A stretch of 64,000 bases of DNA from Escherichia phage Ecwhy_1 (MH791411.1), one strand, 5' to 3'; numbered from the stretch's first letter, positions 13,092-24,853 are shown. Notes: a model not told the origin generated them from the sequence alone. Made by a program: numbers and translations.

Positions 13092-13397
13092 TCATGAGAT
13101 TCGCATTTCATCCAGATATAAACTACATGCTTCGAAATTGTTGTCAGCACTTAAACCTAAATCAACCATCAGACCACAATGCGTTCCACAGAATTTCTTT
13201 ATGTATAGTTTCTTATTGTTTGTACCTAAGTCGTATACATATTCATTTTCGAAAATAGTTTTTAAATCATTACAAATACTTTTTACTATCTTCATTACAT
13301 CATTATGATACTCATATGGTATTCCATCTAGTTCATCAATGATAATAGCAAAACCATTGTCATAGTACTTTAGTTTATTGAATGTTTGTATATCCAT
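13092..13397 (-). CDS. hypothetical protein
   Basis: 101 aa ORF. Confidence 0.45.
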   Translation of the reverse strand: MDIQTFNKLKYYDNGFAIIIDELDGIPYEYHNDVMKIVKSICNDLKTIFENEYVYDLGTNNKKLYIKKFCGTHCGLMVDLGLSADNNFEACSLYLDEMRIS

Positions 13398-13694
13398 TTA
13401 ATATATAATCTCACTTACTTCTATGGTGTAGACACCATCATCAGTCATTAATCTAACTGCAACTTTAATATTACTAGACATTCGTGTAACTATCAATCCA
13501 ATAATTATACCATTCTTTAAAGTACCATTATGGTATCTAACTTTTACTTCAGTTTTATTATCAATTAAGTATCTTCTAATTATGTGTATTTCCGTTCTAA
13601 ACAGTTCTAAATAAACTTCACTATACTCCTTATCAGAACCATCAGCACAGCTATACAATAAATGTACCTGTTCTAACAAAAGTTTTAAATTCAT
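13398..13694 (-). CDS. hypothetical protein
   Basis: 98 aa ORF. Confidence 0.45.
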   Translation of the reverse strand: MNLKLLLEQVHLLYSCADGSDKEYSEVYLELFRTEIHIIRRYLIDNKTEVKVRYHNGTLKNGIIIGLIVTRMSSNIKVAVRLMTDDGVYTIEVSEIIY

Positions 13695-14050
13695 AAGAAC
13701 CTCACAGATTTAATATTACTTGTTACATGTTTAAACACAGTGTTATCGAACTTGTAAACAATTGTATTAAGTGATTTATGAAAATTAACCTCGCACACTA
13801 ATGCCTTGGAACCATTGATTGTACAGACCGTGGATGGTAAGTTGTTTGCTAATATCTCTTTTTCATCTAAACATAGTGAACTAATACAATCATAATAGAG
13901 AGGTTCAAGAACTTTTTCAGTACTAAGAAAATCGAAAGCAAGATCATCTATTTGTTTTATGTAATTGAATAAATTTTGATAGTACTCATTCATGGTCGAT
14001 CCTCTTGAATTTAGCATTATTCGAATAAGTATATGAATGTCCAAAATCAT
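13691..14050 (-). CDS. hypothetical protein
   Basis: 119 aa ORF, ATGA-type overlap. Confidence 0.45.
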   Translation of the reverse strand: MILDIHILIRIMLNSRGSTMNEYYQNLFNYIKQIDDLAFDFLSTEKVLEPLYYDCISSLCLDEKEILANNLPSTVCTINGSKALVCEVNFHKSLNTIVYKFDNTVFKHVTSNIKSVRFL

Positions 14051-19210: not shown

Positions 19211-19948
19211 TTAGAAATATACCATACCCATCAATTCTGAATCTTCAGGGCGAGTATAGCCTTGTTTCTTAACTTTAAAGTAGAAGGATTCATTGTCTTC
19301 TAAATTATAACGTTTCTTCAAGCAACGGGTATATGTCTGGCAATTAGGATGAACCCATTCATATATATGAACACCATCTTCATTATAACCATTTATACTA
19401 CAACGGTTGCCTTCATGTTTCTTGTAGTTCTTGCTTTTCTCGGTAAATTCTTTTACAGCAGTAGTACTTGGTGATTTATATTCAAAAGGAACTTCAGTCA
19501 TACGGAAATAATAATATTGATCGTCTTCATCATATCCCAAGAGCACTGTGTTAGTTTCACGTACATTGTAATGATTCTTACTTTTCAATTCATTTTCATA
19601 TATATCTTGAAGTACTTCTGCAAATACTGTAGTACTGTCAGCATTTGGGTTGGATACACCTGATACTCTTCGTTCAATAATAAAATCAGTATATTTGCGG
19701 TCTTCTGCAATGTCTTCATTCATATAAAGACTAACGAACTTATCCTTGTACGTCTTTACACTGTATTGTTTACTTTGAACTTCGCTATATACATCTGCTA
19801 ACATATTCTCCTGACCGCACTGCACACCACTTACAGAATAAGCACATGCATGTTCAGCCATCACTGATGTTAACATTTGAAAATTTGCCATGTTTAATTC
19901 ATTCGCCATCTCTGTAGCGAAACGGATACGGTCAAGCACTTTACACAC
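19211..19948 (-). CDS. hypothetical protein
   Basis: 245 aa ORF. Confidence 0.5.
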   Translation of the reverse strand: MCKVLDRIRFATEMANELNMANFQMLTSVMAEHACAYSVSGVQCGQENMLADVYSEVQSKQYSVKTYKDKFVSLYMNEDIAEDRKYTDFIIERRVSGVSNPNADSTTVFAEVLQDIYENELKSKNHYNVRETNTVLLGYDEDDQYYYFRMTEVPFEYKSPSTTAVKEFTEKSKNYKKHEGNRCSINGYNEDGVHIYEWVHPNCQTYTRCLKKRYNLEDNESFYFKVKKQGYTRPEDSELMGMVYF

Positions 19949-19997
19949 TCCTTGTGTTAGTTATTGTTCCTCATCCAATATTATATCACTACTTGAG

Positions 19998-20282
19998 CTA
20001 TTGTCCCGCTTTGTAACAATAAAGATTCTCAAATTTAAAGTTCTCTATATCACATTCCTCACGAACTCGGTTCTTGTTCCAGAACAGAATACGAATCCTT
20101 TCATAATCACGATAAACACTAATAATACTTTTGTGTTTAGATTTGTAGTACTGCTGTATAACCTGAAGAGTTATATCCCTCAACTTGGACTTAATTGGGT
20201 AAGACAAATCATTACTAGTTGTTATGGCATAAACCATCTTCATTGTTTCAGCAACAAGTACTTCATTCGATTTATTTGCCAT
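19998..20282 (-). CDS. hypothetical protein
   Basis: Track ORF (GTG at 20300) trimmed to ATG 20280-20282 (MANKSNEV) with AAGGA RBS. Confidence 0.45.
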   Translation of the reverse strand: MANKSNEVLVAETMKMVYAITTSNDLSYPIKSKLRDITLQVIQQYYKSKHKSIISVYRDYERIRILFWNKNRVREECDIENFKFENLYCYKAGQ

Positions 20283-20445
20283 TAAAATCCTTACAAACAC
20301 TATGTAAAGTAAATCCTAAACCAACACCTACGAATGGGAATAGTAAATTAATGTACCAGACATTCATTGTCGAAAGGAAACAAATCCCACTTACTGTCAG
20401 TACTGCTAGTGAGAAAAGACTCCAGATAAAAAATAATGCTCTCAT
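20272..20445 (-). CDS. small two-helix membrane protein (below track size cut-off)
   Basis: Hand-translated 57 aa MRALFFIWSLFSLAVLTVSG...; ATGA overlap with upstream stop; GAGGT upstream. Confidence 0.3.
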   Translation of the reverse strand: MRALFFIWSLFSLAVLTVSGICFLSTMNVWYINLLFPFVGVGLGFTLHSVCKDFNGK

Positions 20446-20732
20446 AAAAATGTTACCTCGTTAGATGGGTAGTTACGATATATTTGTGAATTATGTTCCA
20501 CACCATGAATTGTTATATGCCCGTTGTAGAAAAAAGTAATATCTACAACTTTGAGTTCTTTACGTTTTTTAGTACTGAAATATCTACCCACTAACGCAGC
20601 ATATATATAATCCCTGTACTCTTGAGTAATGAATTTATACATATTATGATTTGCACTACACTTTTCATCATAAGTATTAGTATATTCTTTCATCAGTATA
20701 GCATATGTTTTTTGTATCAATATAATATTCAT
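20442..20732 (-). CDS. hypothetical protein
   Basis: 96 aa ORF. Confidence 0.45.
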   Translation of the reverse strand: MNIILIQKTYAILMKEYTNTYDEKCSANHNMYKFITQEYRDYIYAALVGRYFSTKKRKELKVVDITFFYNGHITIHGVEHNSQIYRNYPSNEVTFL

Positions 20733-21115
20733 CTATAGTTTAATATTGAAATGGGTAGACTATATATATGTACGTAAAGTTTATCAACTCTTTCCATATT
20801 CACTTTTAAAGTACTTCCAAGACGACTGATGCTATCTATGCGATAAAGCACGTCATTCAGCATCATTACGGTATCGGTGTAATCTTCACTAAGAGATTCA
20901 ATGTAGATATCTTCAAGTTTCACATCCGTGCGTGGGATATCTAAATCCCTCAATAAACGCAGTGTTTGCACGATCAGTTCAGCTTTAGTCATGGATACGC
21001 TCACAATTAAGGCAATAAATGCACTCAATGTCAGGTCGCCATGATTTATCAAAATCTTTGTGCTGTTCTTCAGTGTATTCCGAATCATCATTGATGGGAA
21101 AGAAATCACCAGCAC
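20729..21115 (-). CDS. hypothetical protein (start uncertain, possibly ATG at 20992)
   Basis: 128 aa ORF; 5' part overlaps zinc-ribbon ORF in another frame. Confidence 0.4.
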   Translation of the reverse strand: MLVISFPSMMIRNTLKNSTKILINHGDLTLSAFIALIVSVSMTKAELIVQTLRLLRDLDIPRTDVKLEDIYIESLSEDYTDTVMMLNDVLYRIDSISRLGSTLKVNMERVDKLYVHIYSLPISILNYR

Positions 21116-21185
21116 CAGTGGCCCAGTCTGAATCTAAACGGAAACGAGCTAATTGAGTACTGTTGCAATATGGACATTTATTCAA
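20985..21185 (-). CDS. zinc-ribbon protein
   Basis: 66 aa; C-P-Y-C ... C-I-Y-C-L-N-C. Confidence 0.35.
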   Translation of the reverse strand: MNKCPYCNSTQLARFRLDSDWATGAGDFFPINDDSEYTEEQHKDFDKSWRPDIECIYCLNCERIHD

Positions 21186-21462
21186 AATTTATTCCTTCTA
21201 ACTGATATACGTTTAATGAAAATGACCCACTATTATTATCGCATCTGAAACACAGTGTTAAAGAACCATTAAAACTAACAACATCAGTACATATACATTT
21301 TTCACCATTGGATATGATAGATTTTCCTATATATAAATCTCTTACTATAGTACGGTAATGTTGCCATAAAAAATAATACACACTTTCATAGTACTCATCT
21401 TTTACATATGACAAGTATAAGAATTTATAAAATACTTGTATTTCCTTTAAGTTGTTTTTCAT
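21178..21462 (-). CDS. family C paralog
   Basis: 94 aa; N-term M-K-N-N-L-K-E-I-Q-V-F-Y-K-F-L-Y; one of five tandem paralogs. Confidence 0.5.
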   Translation of the reverse strand: MKNNLKEIQVFYKFLYLSYVKDEYYESVYYFLWQHYRTIVRDLYIGKSIISNGEKCICTDVVSFNGSLTLCFRCDNNSGSFSLNVYQLEGINFE

Positions 21463-21736
21463 TCTCCAACTCCAGTAAATTTACACCAATCCAATCAACA
21501 TCACTATCAGTACTTAATTCCAATCGTAGCTTACCGCTATGACTAACAATATCGCGGAATTTGTATATTTTATTATCACGAACTATACACAAATCATGGT
21601 AATATTCATGTAATTCATCCAAAAACTTTATCCATACCGAACGATAGATTTCACCGTAGAGATATTCTCCAGCATCAACCGTAGCGTATTGGATATACAA
21701 AAATTTGTATGTGAATTGTATATCATTAAGATTCAT
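21425..21736 (-). CDS. family C paralog
   Basis: 103 aa; N-term M-N-L-N-D-I-Q-F-T-Y-K-F-L-Y. Confidence 0.5.
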   Translation of the reverse strand: MNLNDIQFTYKFLYIQYATVDAGEYLYGEIYRSVWIKFLDELHEYYHDLCIVRDNKIYKFRDIVSHSGKLRLELSTDSDVDWIGVNLLELENEKQLKGNTSIL

Positions 21737-21746
21737 ATGTCAATCC

Positions 21747-22058
21747 TTATAGGTCCGTTAACTTCAAAACTTTGATCTCCATAAATTCCCTATCAGTTTT
21801 TTCAAGAAATTCTACATGGATAATACCTTGATAAGATTTGACACCTGAATATTCGAATATATCATCTCCATCAGTGTAAGTACTGTAATTCTTTTTTATA
21901 TATTCAGCAATAGAATCTAAGTAATCATAGTAATTATGAATAAATGGTGATTCTTTTGATTCTACATGTTCACCAATCTTCCCACTAAAAAGATACATGT
22001 CATACAAACCGTATATATTTTTATATGTGAATTGAACATCATTCAAATTTAATTTCAA
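21747..22058 (-). CDS. family C paralog
   Basis: 103 aa; N-term M-K-L-N-L-N-D-V-Q-F-T-Y-K. Confidence 0.5.
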   Translation of the reverse strand: MKLNLNDVQFTYKNIYGLYDMYLFSGKIGEHVESKESPFIHNYYDYLDSIAEYIKKNYSTYTDGDDIFEYSGVKSYQGIIHVEFLEKTDREFMEIKVLKLTDL

Positions 22059-22315
22059 GGGAATATCTCCAGAGGAACACTCGTAAATCCAAAATCTGTG
22101 AAGAACTGTACCTCAACTTTACCATCGAGCTTAATGATTATATCTGAAAATTCTGCATGATCGTTATTAATAATTACAGTACTGAATTTTTCTTTAATCC
22201 TCTCACGCACAGTATTAATCATTTCATTACATGTATCTTCTAAAAATATACTATTATTTTTATTTGCTAGGTCACGAATGCACTTGAATGTTAATTGGAA
22301 ATCTTTATAATTCAT
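22055..22315 (-). CDS. family C paralog
   Basis: 86 aa; N-term M-N-Y-K-D-F-Q-L-T-F-K. Confidence 0.5.
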   Translation of the reverse strand: MNYKDFQLTFKCIRDLANKNNSIFLEDTCNEMINTVRERIKEKFSTVIINNDHAEFSDIIIKLDGKVEVQFFTDFGFTSVPLEIFP

Positions 22316-22581
22316 ATATTCACCAAATCCACAGAGAATAGGTCGTTATCAAATTTATATGAAAGTACTAATCTACCACCGAAACTATCTACTCTAAGTA
22401 TCTTTCGTTTTTTTCCATTAATGACAATTTCAGTATTAACAAAATACTCACGTAATTCTTCTAGATAATTTGACCATATTTTATGGGTAAACGCATTTTT
22501 ATTAATTGTGTTAGTACTTCGGTGATTGTGGTGTAATTTAAATAATTCCATATAAGTGAATTGTATATGTTTGTAATTCAT
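22312..22581 (-). CDS. family C paralog
   Basis: 89 aa; N-term M-N-Y-K-H-I-Q-F-T-Y-M; AAGGGGAAAT RBS. Confidence 0.5.
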   Translation of the reverse strand: MNYKHIQFTYMELFKLHHNHRSTNTINKNAFTHKIWSNYLEELREYFVNTEIVINGKKRKILRVDSFGGRLVLSYKFDNDLFSVDLVNI

Positions 22582-22591
22582 ATTTCCCCTT

Positions 22592-22620
22592 ACAAAAATA
22601 GCCCGAACTTATGTCGGGCT
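22592..22620 (-). terminator. intrinsic terminator
   Basis: Minus-strand hairpin AGCCCGA-cataagt-TCGGGCT followed by ATTTTTGT; just after stop of 22628..23287. Confidence 0.4.
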
Positions 22621-22627
22621 ATATGTA

Positions 22628-23287
22628 TTATTCATCGTCATCATCGTCGTCGAGATCTAGGTAAATGTCACTATCACCATCATCGAAGTACTCAACCACT
22701 ACACCAGGAATGTTCAGTGCTGTGAACATCGCATCATATTTTTCATCAGATGGGATAAGAACAAACTCATCAATGCTTTGAATTTCAGGCATACGATCTT
22801 CAGGAATACCCATTTGCAATAAGGATTGGATGATTTTTTCTTTGTATTCTTGGAACTTCTCTTCTGATTCAAAATCCATAATAAGTTGTGCTACATAACC
22901 ATCTTCGTTACCAAATGCGATTGACATTTGTGCATCAGTACCGACATATGACCATGTACGCTTGCCAGTATTTTTCTCAATGAAGTTCTGAATTTCAAGA
23001 ACGATTTCATGACGAGAACTATTGGCAATGTTGTTAAGGTTAGCAACACCAGCAATAATTTCTGAACTGTCATTGGATTCTTCGAATGTGCCATAGTCAC
23101 CTAATACATATTGAACACCATCACAATGTAATGCATATGCATAATCCAAATCAGCAAGTGAATCACACTTACCACGGATTGGGCGTAGGGAAAGCCCTAG
23201 GCGAAGATAACGAAAATATGTATTAGTATTTGTATTTGTCAACGTAATGCTCCTTAACAATATAAAAGTAGTTGCTGTTGTTGTCAA
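22628..23287 (-). CDS. hypothetical protein with poly-Asp C-terminus (start uncertain)
   Basis: 219 aa ORF; N-terminal 40 aa low-complexity and probably not translated; C-term DLDDDDDDE. Confidence 0.4.
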   Translation of the reverse strand: MTTTATTFILLRSITLTNTNTNTYFRYLRLGLSLRPIRGKCDSLADLDYAYALHCDGVQYVLGDYGTFEESNDSSEIIAGVANLNNIANSSRHEIVLEIQNFIEKNTGKRTWSYVGTDAQMSIAFGNEDGYVAQLIMDFESEEKFQEYKEKIIQSLLQMGIPEDRMPEIQSIDEFVLIPSDEKYDAMFTALNIPGVVVEYFDDGDSDIYLDLDDDDDDE

Positions 23288-23531
23288 AAAAGATGACTAA
23301 TCCTTTGTAGACATTTACACCAATCTTGATTTGGCATATTTTATTCGATTTACAAGCCTCAGTCAATAACATTTTGTGCTCTTTACTGAAAGTGTGGAAG
23401 AGTGGTTTTACATGCCACATCTCCACACCATCTAGTACTGGAAAATGTTCACTGAATTTGATCATTGATTCTTGCAAAAAATAACCTGTTAGATTTGAAT
23501 CATCAGACATGTAAGTTCGCCAGGAAGTCAA
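23223..23531 (-). CDS. hypothetical protein
   Basis: 102 aa ORF. Confidence 0.4.
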   Translation of the reverse strand: MTSWRTYMSDDSNLTGYFLQESMIKFSEHFPVLDGVEMWHVKPLFHTFSKEHKMLLTEACKSNKICQIKIGVNVYKGLVIFFDNNSNYFYIVKEHYVDKYKY

Positions 23532-23796
23532 TTACTTCGTCATGTGTTAACTTATCACTACGCTCTAGAACATTGATGATGAATGGTGTTTGACTATATA
23601 ATTCAGCCAGAAACGCAACTTCATCAGATGTATAAGAATATCCCATAGGAACAACTTGTGCAGTCCAGTTTCCTAAAGTTTTGTTTGCAATGATTGCAAC
23701 CACCGTATTACCTTTGAATTCAACATGGATTGAACGGAAACCCGAATCCTCATTCTGATCCCAAAGTACTGGGTTAGTTTTAAACAGTACTGACAT
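23503..23796 (-). CDS. hypothetical protein
   Basis: 97 aa ORF. Confidence 0.45.
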   Translation of the reverse strand: MSVLFKTNPVLWDQNEDSGFRSIHVEFKGNTVVAIIANKTLGNWTAQVVPMGYSYTSDEVAFLAELYSQTPFIINVLERSDKLTHDEVIDFLANLHV

Positions 23797-23798
23797 AG

Positions 23799-24332
23799 TT
23801 ATTTCCTCATGTATTTTATTACATCTTCAAATAGTTTAGTTTTCAGTGCATCATCATTACCAGGTAGAAAAGTACTGAAGCTATTAAAATCTTCATTCTT
23901 GGCAAACTCACGCATCTGTGTGGAACTGTAGCGACTTATATTTCGGTCAATTCCAGCTTGAACTGCCTTGATTGAACAAAAATTATATAACTTCCCATTG
24001 TACGTGTCAAGTGTTTTTTGGAATGGTTCAAGTCTATCTGAACCACATATGAAAAGAACATCTAAGTACTTTCCATCCAGTTCTCTCATTATATCAAACA
24101 GATTATCTTCTGTATAGATATTTTCTTGTACAGATGGGTAAAATCCTTCTGTATAGTACATTTTCAGTTCAGGAGGTAATGGGTTTTTGATGGCATCAGT
24201 ACTGGTACTAAGGAATATTTTCAAATCAGCATTGTACTGTTCTTGTAGTGCTTGAGCTTTTTCAAACACTAAACCATGACCTCGATGTACAGGGTTAATT
24301 CTTCCGAATGTCACTACGCATGTTTCTTTCAT
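23799..24332 (-). CDS. HxGH-motif nucleotidyltransferase (cytidylyltransferase-like; possibly NMN adenylyltransferase type)
   Basis: 177 aa; N-terminal T-F-G-R-I-N-P-V-H-R-G-H. Confidence 0.65.
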   Translation of the reverse strand: MKETCVVTFGRINPVHRGHGLVFEKAQALQEQYNADLKIFLSTSTDAIKNPLPPELKMYYTEGFYPSVQENIYTEDNLFDIMRELDGKYLDVLFICGSDRLEPFQKTLDTYNGKLYNFCSIKAVQAGIDRNISRYSSTQMREFAKNEDFNSFSTFLPGNDDALKTKLFEDVIKYMRK

Positions 24333-24853
24333 ATGTTCTTCATCACCTGACCAATAGATTTAAGATGGTTGATTTTAGCTGGAGTCAAATACTTATCCAG
24401 TACTATTAAACAACTAGGGAATGGAGCACTGTCAGTCTTTTTATCTGGTTCTTCAGGGATACCGAACTTTAAGCGACCTTTTATAAAACAAATACAATCA
24501 CAAACTTTCGCAGCATAATCCTGAAAGGCTATAGTATCAGTTCTTGATGGTACGAGAATCAGTACTGTAGCACCTTTGTTATATGCATCAACTGCCTTAG
24601 ATAACCACGTTTTCAAATCACTGTACGGTGGGTTGAGCCACACGATATTGTTTCCCCAGTCCTGTTCAAGTGAATTGTCTTCTGGTGTAAAGAAATTATC
24701 ACACAATGCTGTTTCTTTAACACATGCTGCATCTAGTGTAAATCCCCAGAGTTCATCCAAATCTTCAAAGAAATCCTTTGGAGTAGTCCAGTTATCTTTC
24801 CCAGTACTGAAATGTACTGATTGTTTTTTCTTCGAAGCATCCTTCTTCGACAT
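24329..24853 (-). CDS. phage Dam-type DNA N6-adenine methyltransferase
   Basis: 174 aa; D-N-W-T-T-P-K-D-F-F and W-L-N-P-P-Y-S catalytic motif. Confidence 0.8.
   Translation of the reverse strand: MSKKDASKKKQSVHFSTGKDNWTTPKDFFEDLDELWGFTLDAACVKETALCDNFFTPEDNSLEQDWGNNIVWLNPPYSDLKTWLSKAVDAYNKGATVLILVPSRTDTIAFQDYAAKVCDCICFIKGRLKFGIPEEPDKKTDSAPFPSCLIVLDKYLTPAKINHLKSIGQVMKNI

Follow-up and report, generated by a model that had tools for sequence, protein, structure and literature searches.

The hyperplastic regions of T4-type phages are one-strand blocks of small early open reading frames (ORFs) that lack a known function and vary highly between relatives; promoter-stem-loop (PeSL) cassettes of these phages, reportedly described by Arbiol et al. 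in Genome Biol Evol in 2010, are said to mediate modular shuffling. In jumbo phages, tandem arrays of short, diverged duplicates lie head to tail on one strand: paralogues have been reported for phage CBB (PMC5259590), and a passage of the phAPEC6 paper, with reference to Hua et al., names tandem duplication as a proposed route of genome expansion in 121Q-like phages (PMC7247149). We analysed a 64,000-nucleotide (nt) stretch of Escherichia phage Ecwhy_1 (MH791411.1), called the window below, in which five adjacent minus-strand genes, C1 to C5, form a small array of this kind, family C. Our comparisons identify C1-C5 as diverged tandem paralogues that descend from one ancestral gene, and we hold their homology and evolutionary dynamics, taken jointly, to be close to certain. 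The locus resembles T4-type hyperplastic regions in being a one-strand block of small, putatively early ORFs of no known function that differ strongly between relatives, in having breakpoints at short conserved gene-boundary sequences and in the conserved stem-loop that flanks the array. Unlike in those regions, however, the array genes are paralogues of one another, and one of the mapped breakpoints lies at a conserved sequence that is coding, namely the N-terminal motif. With the large jumbo-phage arrays (families A and B of this window, and CBB) family C shares the head-to-tail arrangement of short, diverged same-strand duplicates and the genome region, but it has five to seven copies rather than 31-33, is unrelated to them in sequence and shows allele replacement between phages. 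Family C is one more lineage-specific accessory paralogue family of phages and not a new kind of system, and is best described as a lineage-restricted, tandemly duplicated, fast-evolving set of small two-domain proteins whose genes form a probable early operon, in a locus made mosaic by recombination.

Over bases 20500-23500, the window matches Escherichia phage fEgEco12 (PP777464.1, 374.7 kb) and phage WPEC3 with 100 % identity, six other phage records with 97-98 % and the 121Q/PBECO4 group with ~85 %, all of them jumbo phages; the related records that we compared belong to the genus Asteriusvirus. Gene names g163-g175 follow the fEgEco12 annotation, applied to matching window ORFs, and in that record all five of g167-g171 (C1-C5) are labelled 'hypothetical protein'. 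A first-pass annotation of the window had read these genes as a tandem paralogue family, and profile tests, structure prediction and the comparison of related phages uphold that reading. The five consecutive ORFs of 86-103 amino acids (aa) that it placed at 21178-22581 are all found on the minus strand in the ORF listing and in the sequence, and they open with the shared N-terminal variants it had described: MNYKHIQFTYM (C1), MNYKDFQLTFK (C2), (MK)LNLNDVQFTYK (C3), MNLNDIQFTYK (C4) and (MK)NNLKEIQVFYK (C5). Conserved positions of the family comprise N2, D5, Q7, F8, T9, Y10, W35, S65 and G68.

Pairwise BLASTP links C4 with C5 (E value 2e-6), C1 with C5 (1e-5), C1 with C4 (4e-5) and C3 with C4 (3e-4) and leaves C2 unlinked (E ~1), and an all-against-all phmmer comparison agrees. 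Profiles, however, reach all five genes. The independent PHROG profile phrog_21004 matches each of C1-C5 (C2 at E 3.7e-4, over residues 26-78), and a leave-group-out hidden Markov model (HMM), built from 35 family sequences with every C2 orthologue excluded and run on 366 window ORFs, recovers C2 at E 1.7e-7. In a profile-profile comparison by hhalign, the C2 group matches the rest of the family over 73 columns of 86 residues (probability 96.7 %, E 3.6e-10). These matches span the helices and the beta region, and thus the similarity is not confined to the N-terminal decapeptide; common ancestry is supported past it by the PHROG profile, the leave-group-out HMM and hhalign alike. PHROGs contains the same proteins as family C and g174 under four entries of 'unknown function' (phrog_21004, phrog_32291, phrog_35943 and phrog_28826), matched by C3 and C4 (phrog_21004, E 1e-35 to 1e-44), C1 (phrog_32291), C2 (phrog_35943) and g174 (phrog_28826). 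The paralogues are thereby split into separate families with no function assigned; here, cross-hits and profile-profile comparison connect them with one another and with g174 and g173. The first-pass annotation also held family C to be distinct in sequence from families A and B, in agreement with an hhalign probability below 1 %, and we exclude a relationship to the two large families of the window on that basis. These two very large tandem paralogue families on the minus strand, presumably A and B, fill much of the window (17882-57866 and 43169-63814; 33 members of ~100-210 aa and 31 members of ~65-95 aa).

AlphaFold models were obtained for C4 (predicted local distance difference test score, pLDDT, 83.9; predicted template modelling score, pTM, 0.73) and, from its own orthologues only, for g174 (pLDDT 88.7, pTM 0.76). 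The order of helices (H) and strands (E) is the same in C4 (H3-18, H22-45, E50-53, E56-66, E69-75, E82-86) and g174 (H3-19, H27-47, E51-53, E60-67, E73-79, E85-89), which supports g174 as a member. From these models, the members are predicted to be small soluble two-domain proteins in which an N-terminal helical hairpin packs on a C-terminal five-stranded SH3/Tudor/KOW-like beta-barrel. Helix 1 of the predicted hairpin bears the M-N-x-x-D-x-Q-F-T-Y-K motif, an invariant Gly is placed in the hairpin turn of the predicted barrel, and the modelled barrel is five-stranded, antiparallel and strongly bent, superposing on known SH3-like and Tudor-KOW members. Structure searches with C4 list mostly helical-hairpin matches, with CarD, Mfd and Spt5-KOW also present. 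Among BFVD models, C4 matches family members alone (template modelling score 0.55-0.82, normalised by target length) plus one weak RaK2 protein (E 0.04); the matched models are probably orthologues of C1, C5 and C2, judging from their length and source phage. By eye, with no predictor run, no long hydrophobic stretch that could form a membrane segment was noticed in the family proteins. Across the members the isoelectric point (pI) ranges from 4.6 to 9.5 and the net charge from -7 to +4, most being acidic (pI 4.6-5.8) and C1 (9.5) and g174 (9.0) basic. An identity as DNA-mimic anti-restriction proteins of the Ocr/Arn type does not fit, as the members are not uniformly acidic and the fold is not comparable, and a Zn site in C5 (CxC...CxxC) was rejected because its cysteines are missing in orthologues.

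Family C shares with the SH3-like small beta-barrels (Tudor, chromo and KOW domains and the Tudor-like domains of CarD, Mfd and UvrD/PcrA) the fold only. The bacterial Tudor-like domains among these dock on the beta lobe of RNA polymerase (RNAP), and barrels of family C might do likewise, redirecting or inhibiting host transcription early in infection. We regard such a role as quite unlikely, since the searches match unrelated SH3-like domains equally well (chromo, PWWP, BAH, PsaE, NdhS and R67 DHFR), the fold matches show no sequence similarity (identity 4-19 %), and five to seven divergent copies spanning the pI range given above are hard to fit to one conserved RNAP site. Binding of phage or host RNA or DNA in the manner of KOW, Sm or SH3 proteins, for example by RNA chaperones or translational regulators, would suit a fold class that includes KOW, PWWP, Tudor and KIN17 binders, as well as the basic C1 and g174 and the RNA-repair genes nearby; most members are nevertheless acidic and the conserved positions reveal no shared basic patch, and we give this option little credence.

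The first-pass annotation had limited the family to five genes; all five are indeed related, but the family is restricted neither to five members nor to 21178-22581. Downstream of the array, g174 is probably a sixth member, as judged from sequence and model: it matches the family HMM at E 1.5e-5 and the family profile in hhalign at E 5.9e-5 (probability 65 %), and its Turkey5 orthologue reaches E 6.3e-8 with the family HMM. N2, Q7, T9 and Y10, which rank among the most conserved positions of family C, are invariant in g174 orthologues. A match of g174 to Pfam PF25742 (Phage_Gene33) was rejected (17.6 bits, E 0.0047; the gathering threshold is 27 bits), and C1-C5 do not match that family. The neighbouring g173 is possibly a seventh member. 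It exists as two alleles, 27 % identical and linked to each other by hhalign at a probability of 85.8 %; the 121Q/A4-type allele matches the family profile (probability 86.6 %, E 4.4e-6, 45 columns), whereas the fEgEco12 allele alone fails (probability 2.9 %, E 0.016), and for this reason we count g173 as possible and g174 as probable. At this position an allelic replacement is apparent, with 99 % identity to ph0011 and 27 % to the same-position gene of 121Q, UE-S1 and A4. Between C5 and g173, g172 forms a conserved anchor amid the hypervariable block (97-98 % aa identity across phages; ratio of nonsynonymous to synonymous substitution rates, dN/dS, 0.02-0.07). Elsewhere, a trio of adjacent minus-strand ORFs of ~100-120 aa at 13092-14050 has, by eye, a similar helix-helix-beta layout; its matches to the HMM are weak (E 0.001-0.3), and we do not claim it as kin.

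Apart from a few uncultured relatives, only jumbo phages of the genus Asteriusvirus were found to carry family C. When 5.8 billion proteins were searched with a word-seeded profile, 26 clusters came back, all of them orthologues from jumbo phages of E. coli or Salmonella, and a HMMER scan of 1.84 billion representative proteins gave 19 matches, which are proteins of 85-105 aa with the same motif and architecture except for one 52-aa fragment and P0030. The latter, a repeat protein of 1243 aa, has a signal-like segment at its N-terminus and 13 profile matches to the barrel half (total E 1.9e-13); because this score sums 13 weak repeat matches, P0030 is not demonstrably related and probably reflects repeat-inflated beta-hairpin similarity. 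Two divergent matches, P0032 and P0038, lack a close counterpart among GenBank phages, and some uncultured diversity therefore exists. IMG/VR holds one contig with the family and a metagenome collection two, all 121Q-like. The family is not mentioned in the papers on fEgEco12, phAPEC6 (PMC7247149) and CBB (PMC5259590).

Among Asteriusvirus genomes, the array is present but varies in copy number and alleles. Between the conserved genes g166 and g172 there are five copies in fEgEco12, 121Q, ph0011, UE-S1 and A4, four in a Salmonella phage and three in Turkey5, that is, at least three in each of the seven genomes compared. Same-position alleles fall to 30-60 % identity, and identity to any fEgEco12 member is just 27-42 % for all but one of the five A4 genes and for each of the three in Turkey5. 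Aligned with 121Q, fEgEco12 shows identities of ~80 % in flanking sequence and 67-84 % across C1-C3, then 100 % from codon 4 of C4 to the zinc-ribbon gene (g172) and ~55 % in g173; the comparison with ph0011 gives the inverse pattern. Resolved to single bases, the two switches at C4 fall within or beside the bases that encode the motif, and the others at the C4/C5 overlap and the C5 stop. The locus is thus a mosaic, copy-number-variable hot spot in which exchange breakpoints coincide with gene boundaries, among them the conserved 5' motif of C4. In Turkey5 (locus L003, 4720-4770), the motif is partly duplicated where the first two family genes meet, with NLNDIQ-stop ending gene 1 and MIFSDLQFTYK opening gene 2 at once in another frame; this may be a scar of recombination or deletion. 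The four-gene array of Salmonella phages SD-6_S16 and SD-15_S21 (P0025 and P0026; L006) contains chimeric or truncated members with a C2-like N-terminus fused to C3-like fragments, and the many tiny ORFs in these records make assembly errors a possible source of the chimeras.

Values of dN/dS are 0.19-0.26 for C1-C3, 0.5-0.6 for C4 and C5 (against ph0011) and 0.02-0.13 for flanking genes. All members are under purifying selection and hence are real protein-coding genes; this selection is relaxed and possibly, in part, diversifying. Largely redundant, near-neutral duplicates produced by inflation of a jumbo genome, the individual copies having no specific role, would also account for dN/dS two to six times that of flanking genes, for a copy number varying from three to five, for two far larger tandem families (33 and 31 members) in the same window and for the expansion by tandem duplication that the cited passage credits to Hua et al. 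(PMC7247149). Yet dN/dS is clearly below 1 for every member, no fewer than three copies are kept in any of the seven Asteriusvirus genomes, and members just 15-30 % identical still keep the motif, the invariant Gly and the predicted fold, all of which makes near-neutrality unlikely.

Codon usage in the motif, together with the breakpoints, bears on whether the decapeptide is conserved mainly for its DNA, as a regulatory site or an anchor for recombination, and not for protein function. The C4 breakpoints in or beside motif-coding bases, the partly duplicated motif at the Turkey5 junction and the Q7-F8 codons, which are almost fixed as CAA-TTC (13/13 and 10/11, against window usage of 62 % and 44 %; e.g. 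21716-21711), speak for a DNA element, as does the motif's ATACAATTC, which provides the -10-like hexamer of a promoter-like site at 21743-21715. In this site (minus strand, TTGACA-17-TACAAT), the -35 lies within the C3/C4 spacer and C4 codons 6-8 (ATA CAA TTC) form the -10; the site is present in ph0011, its -35 is degraded in 121Q, and this lack of conservation led us to reject it as an internal promoter in favour of a chance or lineage-specific match. The other motif codons, by contrast, vary synonymously at T9, Y10, K11, N2 and D5 with the amino acids kept, using all four Thr codons and both Tyr, Lys, Asn and Asp codons, from which we conclude that the motif is conserved as protein. It is also kept as protein where the DNA cannot be aligned, and forms helix 1 of a confidently modelled core. 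Conservation primarily as DNA thus appears rather improbable.

The terminator hairpin placed by the first-pass annotation immediately upstream of the array is real, with a stem at 22622-22598 (minus strand) followed by TTTTT. The stem has nine pairs, five of them G-C, and a 7-nt loop; 121Q, ph0011, A4 and Turkey5 all retain the GCCCGA/TCGGGC core and the T-run, while loops and flanks differ. The Shine-Dalgarno (SD) sequence of C1, AAGGGGA (22591-22585), follows directly; the interval up to the C1 start codon contains no promoter-like site and has no room for one. Within the array, no terminator-like site was found, and an Rfam search of both strands of 19500-24500 found no RNA family. The genes are tightly packed, with 4-38-nt overlaps or a 10-nt spacer, and each has its own SD sequence. 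C1 and C2 overlap in ATGA and C2 and C3 in TTGA; 10 nt separate C3 from C4; the 12-residue C-terminal tail of C4 makes a 38-nt overlap with C5 in a different frame, and C5 overlaps g172 by 8 nt. The TTG start of C3 is preceded by GGAG 8 nt upstream, and both are kept in four orthologous loci; codon 3, which aligns with the start ATG of the other members, is TTA. The array genes would be co-transcribed and translationally coupled. The array does not fit the PeSL type, in which an early promoter and a stem-loop separate the shuffled ORFs, as there is a lone hairpin upstream of the array with no promoter after it, and the internal junctions are overlaps or the 10-nt spacer.

The nearest upstream near-consensus sigma70-type promoter, just 5' of g166, is a candidate source of transcripts that would read through the hairpin into the array. 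Counting sites with at least 11/12 consensus positions across the whole window, with expectations from dinucleotide shuffles, we found 20 such promoters on the minus (coding) strand versus 2.9 +/- 1.9 in shuffled sequence, and one versus 2.5 expected on the plus strand. This enrichment suggests that the region is transcribed early by host RNAP. It fits the 'early region' of CBB, whose authors suspect early host-take-over genes in a block of short ORFs with RpoD-like promoters (PMC5259590). The phAPEC6 orthologues, gp386c-gp389c, appear nowhere in the text of the phAPEC6 paper, including its Table 1, which lists 62 virion proteins that mass spectrometry had detected (PMC7247149). SH3-like barrels do occur in many phage structural proteins and jumbo phages have many uncharacterised virion proteins (PMC7247149), so that a role in the virion or in morphogenesis, for instance as assembly chaperones or decoration proteins, could be envisaged; with the orthologues missing from the phAPEC6 virion proteome, and with a sigma70-promoter-rich block of short ORFs in which no surrounding gene is annotated as structural in the records examined, we consider it highly improbable. 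Early, non-structural expression of family C is, on balance, probable.

As the best explanation overall, which we hold tentatively, family C is a diversified set of paralogues that act as early, non-structural binders of host factors. Transcription of the array would start at upstream host-sigma70 early promoters and read through the conserved hairpin, and the proteins would serve early in infection as diversified binding modules, for host take-over or counter-defence. The conserved helical hairpin could provide a scaffold or common interface, whereas the variable barrel surface and charge (pI 4.6-9.5) would set target specificity. Diversity of the set would be maintained by duplication and subsequent exchange of cassettes through recombination between co-infecting relatives. 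The binding of host factors in particular, suggested by context, fold class and evolutionary behaviour, is possible but somewhat doubtful. Several points weigh against this explanation. Pfam, NCBIfam, PADLOC and PDB sequence-profile searches gave nothing significant for the family (NCBIfam far below the curated cut-offs), and a literature search found no transcriptomic study of an Asteriusvirus. The terminator immediately ahead of the array, which no promoter follows, would fit low expression or a different control just as well; proteins of ~10 kDa are easily missed in virion mass spectrometry, which makes their absence weak evidence; dN/dS below 1 means that positive, arms-race selection is not demonstrated; and the position of breakpoints at gene boundaries might result from selection acting on recombinants and not from a mechanism.

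A more specific version, which we find unlikely, sees the array as hypervariable effector cassettes of Tudor/SH3 fold, each neutralising another host factor or defence system or docking on RNAP, with the motif as both a structural helix and a DNA homology anchor for cassette swap or deletion. If true, family C would be a small counter-defence 'island' with a built-in shuffling mechanism. Jumbo phages such as 121Q, PBECO4 and fEgEco12 are being proposed for therapy, yet over 80 % of their genes lack a known function. Five to seven 'hypothetical proteins' now become one defined family with a predicted two-domain fold and a narrow phylogenetic range, whose pattern of duplication, fast divergence and cassette exchange is clear. 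Such traits are commonly associated with host-range and counter-defence genes, as a general expectation, and the family therefore offers a compact, testable candidate set of three to five genes per phage, with natural allele swaps between genomes that are otherwise ~80-98 % identical. The features of the locus are collected in Table 1.

Table 1. Positions of family C genes, related or interrupting genes and putative expression signals in the window.
Feature	Position	Strand	Remarks
g174	20442-20732	-	96 aa (MNIILIQKTYAIL...); probable sixth, diverged member
g173	20729-20992	-	87 aa; possible seventh, strongly diverged member
g172	20985-21185	-	66 aa; CxxC...CxxCxxC, zinc-ribbon-like; non-member that interrupts the array
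C5 (g171)	21178-21462	-	94 aa; family motif from codon 3
C4 (g170)	21425-21736	-	103 aa; central member
C3 (g169)	21747-22058	-	103 aa; TTG start
C2 (g168)	22055-22315	-	86 aa; most divergent among C1-C5
C1 (g167)	22312-22581	-	89 aa; pI 9.5; first array member
Intrinsic-terminator-like hairpin	22593-22622	-	between g166 and C1; T-run to 22593
Near-consensus sigma70-type promoter	23259-23287	-	TTGACA-17-TATATT; just 5' of g166; nearest upstream

Neighbouring genes, as labelled in this or related records, include a Dam-type methyltransferase, a cytidylyltransferase, a polynucleotide kinase and an RNA ligase. In fEgEco12, g163 (23799-24332, minus strand) is labelled 'ribonucleotide reductase A'; its orthologues in A4, 121Q, ph0011 and Turkey5 are cytidylyltransferase/phosphopantetheine adenylyltransferase, and the fEgEco12 label thus looks mis-annotated. 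Directly 3' of g174 lies g175 (20272-20445, minus strand), which encodes a hydrophobic 57-aa protein that, by eye, resembles two transmembrane segments.

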